Shown here: in pieces, positions 25,252 through 49,580 of the stretch
Layout of the letters: every line of letters starts with the position of its first letter
Position numbering within the stretch: the stretch's first letter is position 1
Assembly (NCBI GenBank): GCA_018674305.1
Contig: JABHAL010000004.1
Coordinates: forward strand, 446 to 64,445
Source: Candidatus Falkowbacteria bacterium
GTDB lineage: Bacteria > Patescibacteriota > Patescibacteriia > UBA11705 > JABHMO01
Reading direction: 5' to 3'
DNA: 64,000 nt
Made by a program: the position numbers and the translations under genes
Notes under the pieces: model-generated
Seen by the model: the letters and a program-made list of their open reading frames with translations, nothing else
Told to the model about the DNA's origin: nothing
The model's database searches: none

Positions 25252-25283
25252 AAAAAAGAGCCTTACAGTGTAGTAAGACTCTT
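25252..25283 (-). terminator. Intrinsic terminator closing the 25.3-28.4 kb unit
   Basis: Minus strand aagagtcttac-tacact-gtaaggctctttttt. Confidence 0.75.
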
Positions 25284-25290
25284 GGTGCGG

Positions 25291-25845
25291 CTAAAAGTGG
25301 CCGCAGTATCCGTCCCAGTTGTCGACTGGGTATTGACTTTCGTCTAAGTTCCACTCACCTGTGTCCTCATCTTCCCAACCTTCACCGCAAGCGTAGCGGT
25401 AGGCCTGTCCTTCCTTCATCCCGAAGTAGAACTGGTGTGAGGCGTTGCGGCCCACCTGGTAAAACATTACCCCTTCCCGCTCCATTGAATACGGTTCAAG
25501 GCTGTCTTCAAACTCCAGATGCATGCGGATCATGGACTCAGCTCTTTCGTCGCCACCGTGCAACTTCTCAGCAAAGTCCTTAGCTGTGGCGTCACGCTTC
25601 GCGTCAACAATCTGATCATCAGCATACATTGCTTTCATCTGATCAATAATTGCCTGGTCTGTGACCAGCTCACGATCACCGAAGCTATTCTTGCGAAAAA
25701 ACACCATGCCGAAAAACGAACCTTCCGAGGTGACCATCTCGTGCTCAACCTGCCAGCCTTCTCCGATCTTGAACCCCTGGGTCTCCAGCGACTGACCATC
25801 GATCTCCACACCGGACCAAAAACTCACGTTCTTCTGCTGATTCAT
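25291..25845 (-). CDS. Hypothetical acidic protein (184 aa)
   Basis: GGAGG RBS, ATG at 25845; more GC-rich than flanking genes. Confidence 0.7.
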   Translation of the reverse strand: MNQQKNVSFWSGVEIDGQSLETQGFKIGEGWQVEHEMVTSEGSFFGMVFFRKNSFGDRELVTDQAIIDQMKAMYADDQIVDAKRDATAKDFAEKLHGGDERAESMIRMHLEFEDSLEPYSMEREGVMFYQVGRNASHQFYFGMKEGQAYRYACGEGWEDEDTGEWNLDESQYPVDNWDGYCGHF

Positions 25846-25952
25846 GGTGAACCTCCAATGTATTATTAAATTTATTCTCTTCAAAAGTCAATCTTGCAAT
25901 TGACTGCTCAAGAGAGTCACCGTTGTCTGACAACGGATCATCTTTGCGTGAG

Positions 25953-26129
25953 TCACCTCTTTTTGACCCTTCCCATTCTGGGCATCCCCCCAGTGGGTTG
26001 CGAACGCATTGCCCGCTCGAACAGGTACTGCTCACGGGTTACGCTTCCACGCTCCCGACCACCAGCAGTAAACCCATTCTGACGAAGAAAACTCGTCGCC
26101 TCAGCCACCAGATTCCGCGCGTTCCGCAT
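25953..26129 (-). CDS. 58-aa ORF MRNARNLVAEATSFLRQNGFTAGGRERGSVTREQYLFERAMRSQPTGGMPRMGRVKKR
   Basis: AAGGAGATAG RBS immediately after repeat A; not in the ORF track. Confidence 0.65.
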   Translation of the reverse strand: MRNARNLVAEATSFLRQNGFTAGGRERGSVTREQYLFERAMRSQPTGGMPRMGRVKKR

Positions 26130-26149
26130 TGGCTATCTCCTTTTGTTAA

Positions 26150-26218
26150 GCCATCAGAAAAATTAATTTTCATTAATTGCTCTGATGAATGCACAAGTAA
26201 ATGTTACTTATGCACAAG
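26150..26218 (-). repeat. Double-hairpin repeat, copy A
   Basis: Minus strand TGCATAAGTAA..TTACTTGTGCA + TCATCAGAGCAATTAA..TTAATTTTTCTGATGGC. Confidence 0.8.
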
Positions 26219-26811
26219 AAACGCAATGACAAGGGTTATCCACTTTACCGAGACATTTTCCCCATAATAGTATGACTTAACAACAATGGCTCACTAAAAG
26301 TCCATTGTCCCCTGTCTGAAAGGTTTGTCGCTAAGACTTTACCTTCCTTTTTAAAGAACCCTTTATAACCATAGAACGTGTATGGCTGGTTCTTTTCGTA
26401 ATGGTGCTTGCGTACACCTACGATCGTCCTAATGAACTCAACACTACCTTTTACTAGTGCTGTCTCACCCCATAGCCGGTTGAGCAATATGCTCCCGGCC
26501 TGCCCCTGAGCAACCCTTACACAATTTTTACTGCAAGTTATTGGTCATGTCGACTTAACAAATTACTTACACACTATTTTTTCGCAGTGAACTAGAATCT
26601 CAAATCTATGGCCCTTATCCCATAGACCCTCTAGCTCTGAAGAATAATATTTTCCAACGCTCCTAAGAGTCTGTTAGAAAAATTACTCTTCTCTTCAGGC
26701 TCCCCAGAAAACAACCATTGTCATGTGTTAGACAATAATCGTTTGTGAGTTCTGCCCTCGGTACTGGCTGCTGCGAACAACCTATCCCAGTGGTTTTAGA
26801 CTTTTCGCAAA
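26219..26811 (-). ncRNA. Putative structured ncRNA segment 2 (~590 nt, unknown family)
   Basis: No convincing ORF; chain of stems (26354-26393, 26476-26498, 26605-26626, 26717-26736); bounded by repeats B and A. Confidence 0.5.
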
Positions 26812-26876
26812 GTCATCACAATAATCAATAAACATAATTACTCTAATGAGCACGCAAACACCTGCTACATGCGCTC
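26812..26876 (-). repeat. Double-hairpin repeat, copy B
   Basis: Minus strand GCGCA..TGCGTGC + TCATTAGAGTAATTA..TTGATTATTGTGATGAC. Confidence 0.75.
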
Positions 26877-26881
26877 GCTAA

Positions 26882-27064
26882 CTATTTACTTGCACTTGGA
26901 GCCTTACACTCCTTACAACCTAGGCAAGGCGGGCGCCCAAACGGGTATTTTGGACAGTCTACCCGAACAGCAACCTCTCTCAAATACCTCTCATGCTCGT
27001 CTTCAATACTGAAAGGCTCGTCGGTCTCAAAATCCCAACCACTAATCATTTCGCCTTTTCTCAT
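26882..27064 (-). CDS. 60-aa ORF with Cys-rich C-terminus (MRKGEM...CLGCKECKAPSASK)
   Basis: AAGGAGATAG RBS immediately after repeat C; HERYLREVAVR motif. Confidence 0.7.
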   Translation of the reverse strand: MRKGEMISGWDFETDEPFSIEDEHERYLREVAVRVDCPKYPFGRPPCLGCKECKAPSASK

Positions 27065-27083
27065 CACTATCTCCTTTATTAGA

Positions 27084-27150
27084 GTCATCAAAATAATCAA
27101 TTTTTATTAATTACTCTGATGATTGCACAAGCTCTAGGAGCTTGTGCAAG
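27084..27150 (-). repeat. Double-hairpin repeat, copy C
   Basis: Minus strand TTGCACAAGCTC..GAGCTTGTGCAA + TCATCAGAGTAATTAA..TTGATTATTTTGATGAC. Confidence 0.8.
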
Positions 27151-27835
27151 TAGGGAGATGACTGTAGGTGGACAATCATCAGTGCGACACTCACTCCCGA
27201 TCAAGAGAGTCTCCACCACCGCTGCTTAACGGCTGTCGCTTTGACCACACATCCTGGATTCTTGGCCACCCGCCTTGACCGCCCGAAGGCGAGGCAGGAG
27301 GCCTCCATCCAAGTTTCAAGTTAAGGGAGTGTGCGCCCCCTATAGCCTCAGTCAGTTTCTTGCATCTCCGCCCGGCCAAAGGCTTTGACACATGCGAGGG
27401 GTTGGCCTCGCTTCCGCTTTACATCGTATAAGACCCTTCCCCTGGGCCAAACACGCATTGCGGCATGGCCCGACACTGACTGATTTGCTCTACCTTTACC
27501 TTTAACATAGAATTTTATGTTAAATTCCCTGTGCTGGTAGCAGAGCGGGTCCCCTCCCGTAAGCTTGCGACTCACGACAGACAACCACCAACTTTACCGA
27601 CTCCACCTTATTGGCGTAAGGCAAGCCACTAACTTCCTTTGCTCCGACCAAGAGCTTGGACCACATCTTCTCAAGGTGACTCCCCCTGTCATTAGGGGCC
27701 CTGTTCACGATAACTCCGAAGAGCTTCTCGCTAGAAAATGTGGTGGAGATTTGGATAACAGGCAAGCCTGATACCCTGCCTTCCCCGGGATAGGGTAGAC
27801 ATATCGTTCCTTACGGAACTATCAGGCACTCCACA
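27151..27835 (-). ncRNA. Putative structured ncRNA segment 1 (~685 nt, GC-rich, unknown family)
   Basis: cUUCGg and GNRA-type loops in minus orientation (27281-90, 27559-75, 27712-25, 27806-19); long-range helices 27348-56/27475-83 and 27766-73/27820-27. Confidence 0.6.
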
Positions 27836-27903
27836 GCCATCGTAATAATCAAAGCTTTATTTAATTGCTACGATAGGTGCGCGAATATTTTTATTCACGC
27901 AAG
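27836..27903 (-). repeat. Double-hairpin repeat, copy D
   Basis: Minus strand TGCGTGAATA..TATTCGCGCA + TATCGTAGCAATTAAA..TTTGATTATTACGATGGC. Confidence 0.75.
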
Positions 27904-28369
27904 AGTTTATTTGCGCAGTGGTAAAATGCTTTCATTTACCTGTCTAGGTTCTCGCTAAGAGTAGCCTAGACTTTTTGTATTTTGTTCTACAAAACCTTTA
28001 CTTCCTCGTATCACCTCCAATGGACGTTATCGATCTTTGTTTGGTGAGGTCAGCCAAGGCTTCAACCTGGGAAAGCAGCTGCGCGCTACCAACCGGTGCA
28101 ATATAGAACATAAATTGATAATGACCACATCTCATCCCCCAAGCCCCGAAGAACTTTAGGAAATGAGTCTAGTCTCATTAAGTTTATCTCTAAATCCCTC
28201 TGTAATATGTTGCCAGATAAATAAATTTGAATTAATGGCATTTATATAAGCGAGGGATATATTTCCGGAAACAAGGGTTCAGTTGTTACACCTACATCCT
28301 TATTTCTAGAATACAAGCAAATTGCCTGTACTGGTCGAGAACAAAAAACTTTTTTTTACTCAACATAGA

Positions 28370-28398
28370 AGTATAGCATGCATTTTAAAACTTGTCAA
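28370..28398 (-). promoter_or_regulatory. Strong sigma70 promoter for the 25.3-28.4 kb unit
   Basis: TTGACA-17 nt-TATACT with extended -10 TG. Confidence 0.75.
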
Positions 28399-43964: not shown

Positions 43965-44073
43965 TCCTGGCGACGACCTACTTTCCCACTGTGTAGTATC
44001 ATCGGCGCTACAGGGCTTAACTGCTGTGTTCGGGATGGGAACAGGTGTGGCCCCTGCGCTAGAGTCACCAGGA
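43965..44073 (-). rRNA. rrf: 5S rRNA
   Basis: CCTGGTG...CCCATCCCGAACAC...GGGAAAGTAGGTCGTCGCCAGG. Confidence 0.95.
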
Positions 44074-44156
44074 CTATGTCTCTGTTTAAATAGAATATTT
44101 GATTCAAGTATAATAATTACAATTTGTAATCCGAAAATGTGAATATTAACATTATA

Positions 44157-47140
<2,984 letters not shown>

Positions 47141-47439
47141 CAATAATACTAATATTATTGTCTTATAATTTTAATTTTTCGTATTTTTTCGTTTGACAAA
47201 ATTGCTATATTGTTAAAACATTTTTTTACTTAAATCTAACTTAGATTGTCAATGATCTTCGGTGTCATTTTTTATTTAGCCCCACGGTATTTTGGCTCTT
47301 GTGGTTAGTTGGTCTGTATTTTGCAACAGACACTTTTGCAAATAAAAAATATCCCGACTTGATTTTCCATCCATCCCAGGAGAAAATCAAGTCGAAATAC
47401 TTTGTGTGGGAAATTGTTAACTCAATCAATGTGCCTTCT

Positions 47440-47467
47440 ATTATATAGGAATTTAAAATTATGTCAA
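47440..47467 (-). promoter_or_regulatory. Dedicated promoter of the 23S-5S unit, with a boxA-like site at ~47244-47257
   Basis: TTGACA-16 nt-TATAAT; GATCATTGACAATC in the leader. Confidence 0.75.
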
Positions 47468-47552
47468 GGATAAGCTATGCACAAGTTATATACAATATTT
47501 TTTTGTTTAATTTTACGAAAAAAGCACCCTTTTTAGAGTGCTTGTATTTATT

Positions 47553-48050
47553 CTATGTTTTAGCCTTGGCATTCATTAATGCGTCGCTGATTTCATAGCA
47601 CCAAGGCGTTTTCTTTGTGTTTACAAGAACCACATACTTATCCCCGGAAAGAATAATCAAGCCCTGTTCAACCATTTCATAAATACGTTCGCAATCACCA
47701 TATAATATGCCATTCAAAGCTGGCATTTCTGATTCGGAAACAACTCTTGTTAAATGAACTTTTTTTTCTCCATCAACGTAACGGAAAAAACTCAATGTGT
47801 AGACACCCGGTTTTTTAGTGCCTGTAATAGAGACATGCAAAATTCCTGCATCCCTGTAAAGTTCTTTCAGTCTCGAGCTAACTTCCCAATCTTGACGGTC
47901 AAGCTTTGTCCGATCCTCCTCTATCTGATAAATCCTTTTACGCAATTCATTCGCTTCATCAATCAACGCCAACTTCTTTTCTGTGAAGGATTTATGATCT
48001 ACAAATTTTTCTTCAAACTCTTTTCGTAAGGTTTCTTCTTTTGTTGCCAT
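47553..48050 (-). CDS. Hypothetical protein with N-terminal coiled coil
   Basis: AGGAG RBS; follows the NDT-like gene. Confidence 0.7.
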   Translation of the reverse strand: MATKEETLRKEFEEKFVDHKSFTEKKLALIDEANELRKRIYQIEEDRTKLDRQDWEVSSRLKELYRDAGILHVSITGTKKPGVYTLSFFRYVDGEKKVHLTRVVSESEMPALNGILYGDCERIYEMVEQGLIILSGDKYVVLVNTKKTPWCYEISDALMNAKAKT

Positions 48051-48068
48051 TCATTTCTCCTTTTTAAT

Positions 48069-48536
48069 CTATATTGAATTTGCCATTTGAATTGCCAAAT
48101 TAACTGTTCCTTTTAAAGTATCTGCAATTGGTACGCCATGCTTTTTCGCATAATGGCGAATGTAACCCATCTTCTTCGCTTCAGGTGGAGAACCAAGGAC
48201 AACCTTACCAGAATTCTCCCAACGTCCCCATTCTACATTAGTTGTAAAACCAGGCATGGTTTCAAGCACACGCGGAATCCAGAACAAAATGCAATCTGCT
48301 GCATTCATCTGTTCGTCTTCCCAGTCAACTTGATACTCCCAATTAAATGTTTCTAGATCACGACTCTCAGGAATAAAAATATTTCCATCAAACCCAAATT
48401 GTTCAAAAAGCCTAATTGCTTCTGGTCGCCAAGACGAAACAATTGGTTCAACCCAAGGCCTTGGAGTTGGCCCAGCTAGAAAAATTCTTTTTTCCGCATC
48501 ATCAACCAGCGGATCATCTACGTGAAAGACTCTCAC
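48069..48536 (-). CDS. Nucleoside 2-deoxyribosyltransferase-like protein
   Basis: IFLAGPTPR...SWR, QVDWE, FWIPR, TTNVEWG; GTG start with GGAGG. Confidence 0.8.
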   Translation of the reverse strand: MRVFHVDDPLVDDAEKRIFLAGPTPRPWVEPIVSSWRPEAIRLFEQFGFDGNIFIPESRDLETFNWEYQVDWEDEQMNAADCILFWIPRVLETMPGFTTNVEWGRWENSGKVVLGSPPEAKKMGYIRHYAKKHGVPIADTLKGTVNLAIQMANSI

Positions 48537-48650
48537 TTAAACCTCCGAATTACAAATTGAAAATGAACCGTTAAGAATTTACATTATATAAAATATACTC
48601 TTTTGTCAACAAAAACCCCGCCTGCTACATTATAGCGGCGGAGCTGTTTT

Positions 48651-49400
48651 TTATTTCTGTACTCTCAAAGCTTCTCGCAAATAATCACCTGCTTCATCTA
48701 AATTGAGTCTGTCTTCTTCGTCACGCAAAAGCCCTTCCGTATCAATACAAATATCTGGATACCTTTTCACGATTTCAGGAATCAAATGAAAAGTTCCCGC
48801 GGACAAACCACCAGCTACCCCATAACCAATTCCCAAACTTGGTTGGTAAATTGATTCAAGATAATAAAGTAACTGTGCTTGATTTAATGGTTGACCAAAT
48901 CCACAACTTGGATCAAGTAGCACATAATCAATGTGCCGGGAGTAGGCATTAATCAAACTAGCCATCACGTCTGGGTTTCTTACTCTTTCAAAAGCTCTTG
49001 ATCCAATCTGTAAAACAATTACAACGTTAGGATACTCATTTCTGAATAGTCTAAGTTCATCAAGACTTGGCCAAGGAATGTTCAATTGAAAACCATGACA
49101 GGCTGGGCCAGCAATATTCATTAAAATTGCCATTTCATCAGACAGTTTGCCGCCCAGATCTTTTTTAAAATTGAAATGAATCAAATTCAAGGCACACGGA
49201 TGATCCACGAAAATACTTTGAATTTCCTCTACCTCCGAATAACGATTAGGCCACCTGTTTGCAACTCCACATAAAGACTTTGAGCTGACCAGAACGCCAA
49301 CCATTAATTTGTGTCTACCTTCCGCTGGCATCAAGGCCAACATTGCTTCAACTTCCTGCCGGCTCACGAATCCAGTAATTCCGATGTACGGCTTATTCAC
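48651..49400 (-). CDS. PRAI/TrpF-like TIM-barrel protein
   Basis: IGITG, FQLN, LLDPSCGFG, GVAGGL, IDTEG; GTG start with GGAGG. Confidence 0.6.
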   Translation of the reverse strand: MNKPYIGITGFVSRQEVEAMLALMPAEGRHKLMVGVLVSSKSLCGVANRWPNRYSEVEEIQSIFVDHPCALNLIHFNFKKDLGGKLSDEMAILMNIAGPACHGFQLNIPWPSLDELRLFRNEYPNVVIVLQIGSRAFERVRNPDVMASLINAYSRHIDYVLLDPSCGFGQPLNQAQLLYYLESIYQPSLGIGYGVAGGLSAGTFHLIPEIVKRYPDICIDTEGLLRDEEDRLNLDEAGDYLREALRVQK

Positions 49401-49495
49401 GCTCCCCCTCCATTTAAAGGAACACCCACGTAGGTAATTTAGCACTTATATATGTTTTGTAAAGTCTAAAATTATGAAAAAAAATAACACGCTCA

Positions 49496-49580
49496 TGGTG
49501 GGCGGGAAAGGACTTGAACCTTCACGGCCGAAGCCACCAGTTCCTAAGACTGGCGTGTCTACCAATTTCACCACCCGCCC
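49496..49580 (-). tRNA. tRNA-Leu(TAG)
   Basis: Cloverleaf with long variable arm, CCAGT-CT-TAG-GA-ACTGG, encoded CCA. Confidence 0.97.

Follow-up and report, generated by a model that had tools for sequence, protein, structure and literature searches.

The window analysed here is a stretch of 64,000 nucleotides (nt) from a Candidatus Falkowbacteria bacterium (contig JABHAL010000004.1, positions 446 to 64,445). It forms part of a genome (G000) of 1.28 Mb in 16 contigs with 36-37% GC, whose DNA is present in seawater and marine metagenomes. A locus of 3.1 kb, with all its features on the minus strand, is situated between ileS and a flavin adenine dinucleotide (FAD)-oxidoreductase gene. These two genes abut in the genomes G007, G012, G020 and G023, and therefore, the 3.1 kb represent an insertion into a conserved gene order. 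The locus is headed by a sigma-70-type promoter (28370-28398; TTGACA-17-TATACT with an extended -10 TG, 11/12 consensus match), the best of 16 promoter-like sites found overall versus 9.6 expected, and is closed by an intrinsic terminator (25252-25283; stem 25283-25256 plus U-tail). Similar promoters head the homologous loci of G002, G003, G005, G011, G013, G015 and G016, and the terminator is near-identical in G002. The units are ordered as leader RNA, repeat D, a large RNA termed RNA1, repeat C, a 60-amino acid (aa) open reading frame (ORF), repeat B, a second large RNA (RNA2), repeat A, a 58-aa ORF, repeat E, a 184-aa ORF and the terminator. The ORFs cover 915 of the 3147 bases, and the whole is likely a single accessory operon.

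An Rfam scan of the window gave no match in the 3.1-kb interval, and in nine homologous loci Rfam 15, including ROOL, GOLLD and OLE, yielded only transfer RNAs (tRNAs) and sub-threshold noise at E-values up to 10. RNase P RNA (C16:313401) and transfer-messenger RNA (tmRNA; on contig C4) are encoded elsewhere in the genome and not at the locus; the 6S RNA family model found no match anywhere in the genome. A sequence-only reading of this DNA had described a minus-strand locus bracketed by promoter and terminator, mostly noncoding, containing large structured RNAs and belonging to no known family. The bracketing elements and the low coding content are as described, the Rfam scans it had proposed returned no family, and the structured nature of RNA1 is borne out by covariation.

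Structure and conservation of RNA1

RNA1 (27120-27837, approximately 718 nt, with ends predicted from cut sites discussed below) is almost certainly a selected RNA structure. It folds better than shuffled sequences (z -5.5), and RNAalifold predicts 144 pairs for the four full-length copies, 64 of which show two-sided change. From the helices common to all four copies, 104 pairs belonging to 19 helices were selected by curation; here, 50 pairs changed on both sides and 96% of the cells were paired. None of 500 shuffles reached this result, and slid controls were 37-44% paired. In an imperfect alignment of eight copies of the core (27243-27483), 15/33 pairs show two-sided change and 87% are paired. 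Insertions and deletions are confined to hairpin tips, and the homologs share no open frame, their longest open stretches falling in different frames.

The core is organised around a long-range helix of 8 bp (27483-27476/27355-27348), 5/8 pairs of which vary on both sides among the full-length copies, and it keeps a CCGC/GCGG helix flanked by A-rich linkers. Two pseudoknots are predicted: a GGCC/GGUC helix (27470-27467/27246-27243) would cross the long-range helix, and the loop (27334-27330) of a hairpin (27341-27324) would pair downstream with 27251-27247. A variable stem contains a 30-nt hairpin (27269-27298) resembling repetitive extragenic palindromes, which is absent from G003 and has a second copy on contig C9.

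The RNA1 family is narrow and patchy across the lineage, with eight cores in seven genomes, four of them full length and from two orders. Among 25 other genomes of the order, the core model gave four real matches, to which an unfiltered local search added G002; a fifth match (G023, E 0.015), located within a coding gene, was discarded. In the class, two of 150 genomes matched, G147 being real and G066 (E 0.015) not being counted, and in the phylum none of 150 did. The one sampled relative of G147 held no further core match. A model built on the RNA1 sequence alone found G005 and G147 only, among 151. Of 33 genomic matches to a core pattern, three were true homologs, all at loci already known, and metagenomes added one contig of the G003 type. 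The three viral matches of this pattern (one coding sequence) were rejected, a pattern for the 5' domain had no viral match, and phage records contained no match to RNA1.

The content of the locus differs between relatives. G003, from the same genus, carries the leader, a repeat, RNA1 (78-80% identity), another repeat and ORFs of 59 and 181 aa; the 60-aa ORF and RNA2 are missing. In G002, the leader, D and C are retained, and of RNA1 only the two ends are left, joined at a 6-nt microhomology. C is followed by a paralog of the RNA1 core that has diverged, then by a repeat and a 145-aa ORF, and finally by the ortholog of the 58-aa ORF, E and the ortholog of the 184-aa ORF. In other genera (G005, G011 and G015), RNA1 or its core lies upstream of ileS, G011 having two cores in tandem and repeats between its units; in G013, the leader is present with a repeat and small ORFs, without a core. 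In G147, from another order, RNA1 is full length and stands behind a promoter of its own; a hairpin and a 169-aa ORF come after it. RNA1 is found beside unrelated ORFs in G005, G011 and G147, and the core persists without the 5' domain in G011, G015 and the G002 paralog.

Further elements were noted near ileS. In G004, a GC-rich folded segment of about 600 nt, bounded by a promoter and a terminator (L121:10385-10985), occupies a neighbouring slot, is unrelated to RNA1 or RNA2, has no Rfam match and may carry a 200-codon open stretch on the other strand. In several relatives, ileS is preceded by a leader with a T-box-like GATGGTAYC motif and a terminator (L120:5350-5480, L125:10550-10850, L127:5960-6240, L101:4700-4950 and L035:5100-5390), downstream of and separate from the RNA operon; those of these loci among the nine scanned gave no Rfam match, and no T-box-specific search was made.

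Two metatranscriptome runs from different studies, picked because they hold part of the locus, contributed three RNA contigs, all of which fall inside RNA1 (27235-27412, 27529-27825 and 27331-27575) within the 4.7 kb examined; neither strand nor ends nor level can be read from such contigs. Of the 30 bins of the same stretch, DNA runs cover 29-30. Over a 20-kb control, the same RNA runs cover the tmRNA of the genome without differences, one 223-nt piece and a few fragments of at most 31 nt, and no coding region is covered at gene length. These observations hint, if weakly, at RNA1 being a stable RNA. The 223-nt contig (C4:7537-7759, run X18) adjoins tRNA-Asp and is possibly another stable noncoding RNA.

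The twin-hairpin repeat and its predicted processing

The units of the operon are separated by a repeat that folds, in each copy, as two adjacent hairpins and was modelled from 11 repeats of four genomes. The copies are D (27835-27903), C (27083-27154), B (26811-26881), A (26149-26220) and E (25874-25946; covariance model E 6.6e-5), and both C and A are followed by AAGGAG. A and C share 83% identity over 65 nt, and the repeat matches at E 1e-11 against the whole genome. The sequence-only reading had listed the first four copies, all of which are real, and had missed E, which stands between the 58-aa and 184-aa ORFs and recurs in G002 and, weakly, in G003. Since E is present, every unit is bounded.

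Hairpin 1 has a strong stem of free sequence. Hairpin 2 keeps 16 pairs, 9/16 with two-sided change in 11 copies, and contains fixed A-U, G-U, U-A and U-G/U-A pairs. The set used to compare it with RNase III substrates comprised the best 24 of 44 model matches, namely the 11 training repeats and 13 held-out ones. A G-U at position 6, found in 22/24 copies, pairs on the transcribed strand only, and position 7 is paired in 7/24 copies.

For the Escherichia coli enzyme, cleavage is reported to be favoured by an 11-bp helix above the cut, UA or UG in the distal box and A-U at positions 2 and 4 of the proximal box (PMC1540722). A weak consensus, WNAGWGNNCWU, has been described (PMC4357697), and cleavage leaves 2-nt 3' overhangs (PMC3867540). 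At a single register, the only one to fit among the 24 copies, the distal box has U-A in 24/24 copies followed by U-G or U-A in 23/24 (U-G in 14/24), and the proximal box has A-U at position 4 in 24/24 and A-U or U-A at position 2 in 16/24. Hairpin 2 fits these determinants in 23/24 copies; by comparison, the genome has 1977 long hairpin axes, of which 304 (15%) fit in any register. The fuller motif occurs on 19 hairpin axes of the genome, including D, C, B and A (4/19), and E fails this stricter test. These four repeats also match 5-7 of the 8 fixed letters of the weak consensus, and the genome carries an RNase III gene (C16:184448).

The twin hairpins thus read, on these sequence features, are probably RNase III punctuation, in keeping with the earlier suggestion that the repeats are processing sites. 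RNase III would cut hairpin 2 at 3 bp above its base, before 27873 and after 27838 in D and before 27119 and after 27086 in C; the corresponding predicted ends are 26846/26814 in B, 26185/26152 in A and 25912/25877 in E. Hairpin 1 would stay on each upstream product and protect its 3' end, and the downstream product would in each case start just before a ribosome-binding site or at the conserved 5' end of an RNA; the predicted cut in D coincides with the start of RNA1 conservation. The cuts would release three small mRNAs and three long folded RNAs, with predicted products of 489, 718, 239, 628, 239 and 625 nt. Both small-ORF cassettes measure exactly 239 nt between predicted cuts (27085-26847 and 26151-25913), and their proteins are unrelated. 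We propose that, with its own hairpins insulating each unit, units may be acquired, lost or duplicated from one genome to another.

The rRNA genes of this genome are unlinked (23S-5S at 43965-49580 of the window, 16S at C16:89470-91000), each with a promoter and a processing stem, and the 23S gene has a 58-nt insertion relative to the model. The processing stems of 16S and 23S are A-U rich and loosely resemble hairpin 2, a likeness too unspecific to count.

The twin hairpin is a general element of this lineage and not peculiar to the RNA1 operon. It is present in 7/25 other genomes of the order, often precedes ordinary ORFs led by a Shine-Dalgarno (SD) sequence and recurs in an array behind a retron-like gene for a reverse transcriptase (RT) with RNase H in G000 and G003. 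The sequence-only reading had proposed a search for the same alternation of units in other genomes. The same repeats bound the units in relatives, with different RNAs and ORFs between them, which supports its notion of a cassette array; the repeats are not specific to this system, and the unit content is not constant.

The RT locus (G000 C4:42350-46183, L100:4350-8184, minus strand; also G003 C15, L107) comprises a promoter and a 517-aa retron-like RT (PADLOC RT_VI, 4e-32) with a WFDD motif and a fused RNase H-like C-terminus. Behind it lie a 2.3-kb noncoding array of double-hairpin units of about 280 nt, shorter in G003, and then genes for an AAA ATPase and a 550-aa protein. A single double hairpin is located at G000 C9:26357-26428, flanked on one side by a large gene for an AAA ATPase and on the other by a 439-aa ORF. 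In G005, a unit of about 290 nt consisting of a double hairpin, further structure and an SD sequence precedes two different ORFs (L022:5900-6610); its first copy is partly N.

Leader RNA, RNA2 and small proteins

The leader RNA (27874-28362, about 490 nt, with predicted ends) consists of a 5' part with a TTCCGGA box and a long hairpin, and a 3' part of about 185 nt. It folds better than shuffles (z -4.5), and in an alignment of seven loci 9/22 predicted pairs of the 5' part show two-sided change. The 3' part is nearly collinear with that of G002. This region (28104-27904) may form a long-range pseudoknot, in which two adjacent 5' strands pair with two adjacent 3' strands, and similar ends were seen in G016 and in a further segment of G002 (L021:8365-8660, L102:5040-5580 and L021:7522-7700).

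RNA2 (26186-26813, about 628 nt) folds strongly (z -8.3), and blastn recovered no homolog among 300 other genomes of the class. For the leader, RNA1 and RNA2 alike, the minus strand folds better than the plus strand, and the 184-aa ORF gave a z of -0.6 (six shuffles each). The sequence-only reading considered the operon to be two diverged copies of one module, which does not hold: RNA1 and RNA2 do not align (z 0.7 or lower), RNA2 contains no core match, and no alignment was obtained between the 60-aa protein and the 58-aa one.

The 60-aa ORF (26882-27064) encodes an acidic protein with four C-terminal cysteines and has no homolog among the loci seen. The basic 58-aa protein (25953-26129) has orthologs in G002 and G003 with 35-45% identity, and the acidic 184-aa protein (25291-25845), characterised by the conserved motifs F-x-x-VGRNA-x-H-x-F and Y-x-GH, has relatives in G002, G003, G013 and P0003. 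The latter two proteins are conserved in the genus, and none of the three accompanies RNA1 outside it. No Pfam, PHROG or PADLOC family was assigned to them. In a protein search, the 58-aa protein retrieved only itself and the 184-aa protein three proteins; an ESM Atlas search gave no usable match.

All three ORFs are SD-led and GC-rich, like the accessory genes of the genome. According to crude ORF calls, AGGAG or GGAGG precedes 2-3% of 563 ORFs with a low GC content at third codon positions (GC3), versus 55-71% of 86 high-GC3 ORFs. Translation signals are accordingly two-tiered throughout the genome, with low-GC3 core genes nearly devoid of SD sequences and high-GC3 accessory genes mostly having them, and the 3' end of the 16S rRNA keeps a variant anti-SD sequence (AACUCCU).

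Alternative readings and known systems

We favour, with moderate confidence, the reading of an RNase III-processed operon from which RNA1 acts as a free folded RNA. The fold of RNA1, built around its double-pseudoknot core, would yield a compact particle or a scaffold similar in kind to OLE, ROOL and GOLLD, and RNA1 would act alone, without a dedicated protein partner.

Several points weigh against this picture. The crossing GGCC/GGUC helix is paired in 32/32 cells, but varies on one side only, one position showing three types of pair; in the loop helix, two-sided changes number one among the four full-length copies and two among the eight cores. Hence, the two pseudoknots are predictions, and both are short and have alternative partners. 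The RNA1 structure was derived from the same sequences on which it was counted, so that the figures lean in its favour, and of the four full-length copies two are close. RNA2 is without a homolog, its support being folding energy. As for processing, the RNA contigs reveal neither cleavage nor strand nor RNA ends, and none falls on the leader, RNA2 or the ORFs, an absence that itself proves nothing. The 13 held-out repeats were found with the model trained on the other 11, and their fit is not independent; the register was mapped from the text of PMC1540722, and the RNase III rules stem from E. coli. In copy E, the second position of the distal box is C-G, and in G005, G015 and G147 the double hairpin directly in front of RNA1 or its core is weak or missing.

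The main alternative, which appears unlikely, holds that the RNA1 core is a self-cleaving, splicing or tRNA-processing ribozyme and that the operon delivers catalytic RNAs. A long-range helix crossed by a pseudoknot, unpaired letters that do not vary, an invariant 4-bp helix with AA and UGAAAA/UGUAAA linkers on its flanks and the persistence of the core without the 5' domain would suit a catalyst, and the topology may resemble that of the RNase P and group I cores. Yet the core matches neither group I (RF00028 matches on contig C1 only) nor RNase P nor any Rfam ribozyme, the RNA contigs contain no joints, and there is no exon context or conserved substrate. Readings of RNA1 motifs as group I, RNase P, T-box or box C/D were rejected for misfits in element order or conservation and for want of an Rfam match. 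An improbable alternative casts the RNAs as cis-acting leaders or spacers, which control or stabilise the downstream small genes: the RNA stands directly behind the promoter and its leader in G015 and G147, and each RNA in G000 has an ORF after it. However, the double hairpin parts each RNA from the next ribosome-binding site, the downstream genes differ across genomes, the stretch of G015 that separates the core from the ileS leader region has no ORF of at least 85 aa, G002 lost the interior of RNA1 and still kept the operon, and the RNA contigs represent RNA1 exclusively.

Still less probably, the repeats are integron-like sites for recombination or insertion of single-stranded DNA, or the retron-like RT writes released RNAs back into the array. 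Variable content between the repeats of close relatives, the duplicated G005 unit, the tandem cores of G011, the double hairpins behind the RT gene and strand-biased G-T pairs, which would also suit single-stranded DNA, speak for exchange of this type. An attC site is a single hairpin that follows each ORF of an integron cassette array; the repeat consists of two hairpins, with free sequence in the first, before a ribosome-binding site, and also precedes ordinary ORFs. The sole deletion seen, in G002, ends at the microhomology inside RNA1 and not at a repeat, and the 12 window proteins scanned include no recombinase, no genome-wide integrase search having been made. The sequence-only reading had further proposed an RNA antitoxin/small toxin system or RNA-protein modules in duplicate, for which one may cite a pseudoknotted RNA upstream of small proteins and a basic, genus-wide 58-aa protein. 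Type III toxin-antitoxin systems comprise short tandem RNA repeats upstream of a toxin-family nuclease; the RNAs here contain no tandem unit, the proteins match no Pfam, PHROG or PADLOC family, and the two halves of the operon are not homologous. A toxin pair or fixed RNA-protein pair is very improbable, because RNA1 occurs beside different ORFs in different genomes (without these proteins in G005, G011, G015 and G147), and the 58-aa protein occurs without intact RNA1 in G002. Decayed genes or chance structure, to which the patchy distribution, the orphan RNA2 and a 202-codon open stretch on the opposite strand in G147 might point, are scarcely credible for the locus and are refuted for RNA1 by compensatory changes, indels at hairpin tips, the lack of a common open frame and the RNA contigs.

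To our knowledge, bacteria possess few RNAs that are both large and intricately folded, and those to which a role has been assigned serve as ribozymes or core machines. A new RNA family with a compact covarying core is a direct target for structure and activity tests, and the twin hairpin offers precise predicted cut sites as well as a probe for more RNA cassettes in these uncultured bacteria. It is striking that a reduced genome of 1.28 Mb spends 2.2 kb on large RNAs, and that close relatives fill the slot with different ones. Beyond the RNase III-processed operon, a bolder extension is possible, if doubtful: RNA1, with its double-pseudoknot core, might be the first member of a novel class of ribozymes or of machines made of RNA only. 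The locus might then constitute a swappable library, in which Patescibacteria would maintain several unrelated 500-700-nt RNAs as exchangeable cassettes bounded by RNase III sites, possibly written back into the chromosome by the retron-like RT, in whose own array the same hairpin occurs.

The literature searched, with subscription journals and preprint supplements outside its scope, contained no description of RNA1 or its operon. The accessible part of the COMPASS preprint (10.64898/2026.10.21.760802) names no such RNA, and its database or supplements may hold RNA1 as a cluster. The closest parallels are the ornate large RNAs ROOL, GOLLD and OLE (PMC12286853). RNA1 resembles them in its size (within 500-800 nt), many helices, predicted pseudoknots, a function that is also not known and a tRNA gene nearby in some genomes (tRNA-Ala in G011, G015 and G016); the same source states a conserved 3' part and a more variable 5' part for GOLLD, an arrangement found in RNA1, too. 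The features defining such RNAs (more than 500 nt, multiple helices, covariation and pseudoknots) all occur in RNA1, with modest support for the pseudoknots. Unlike them, RNA1 and its homologs match no Rfam model; therefore, going by its sequence, RNA1 likely represents a new family of the ornate-large-RNA kind. In contrast to ROOL and GOLLD, it has no phage or viral match and occupies a chromosomal slot beside ileS, and unlike all three it is predicted to be cut out of an operon that also contains other RNAs and small genes.

With regard to organisation, TIGR-Tas systems are described as combining a short dual-repeat array with a Tas protein (PMC12045711); the units here measure 240-720 nt, unlike those of a short-unit array. 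The early transcript of phage T7 carries five RNase III signals in a polycistronic precursor of about 7000 nt (PMC3867540) and shares with our locus one promoter, one terminator and inter-unit hairpins that fit RNase III determinants. Unlike in T7, large noncoding RNAs make up half of the units here, every site is preceded by an additional hairpin, the unit content is variable between genomes, and cleavage is predicted. In the dicBF operon of the E. coli Qin prophage, small proteins and a noncoding RNA are cut from one transcript by RNase III, as reported in a preprint (bioRxiv 10.1101/2023.04.14.536235), and the same combination in one transcript, with predicted cleavage, characterises the present operon. 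DicF, however, is a base-pairing small RNA of 53-190 nt, whereas RNA1 comprises about 720 nt and has a core of tertiary type that is conserved; the sites here are, moreover, a repeated element. On this comparison, the best reading is an operon that would work in the style of T7 and dicBF and is a member of neither.

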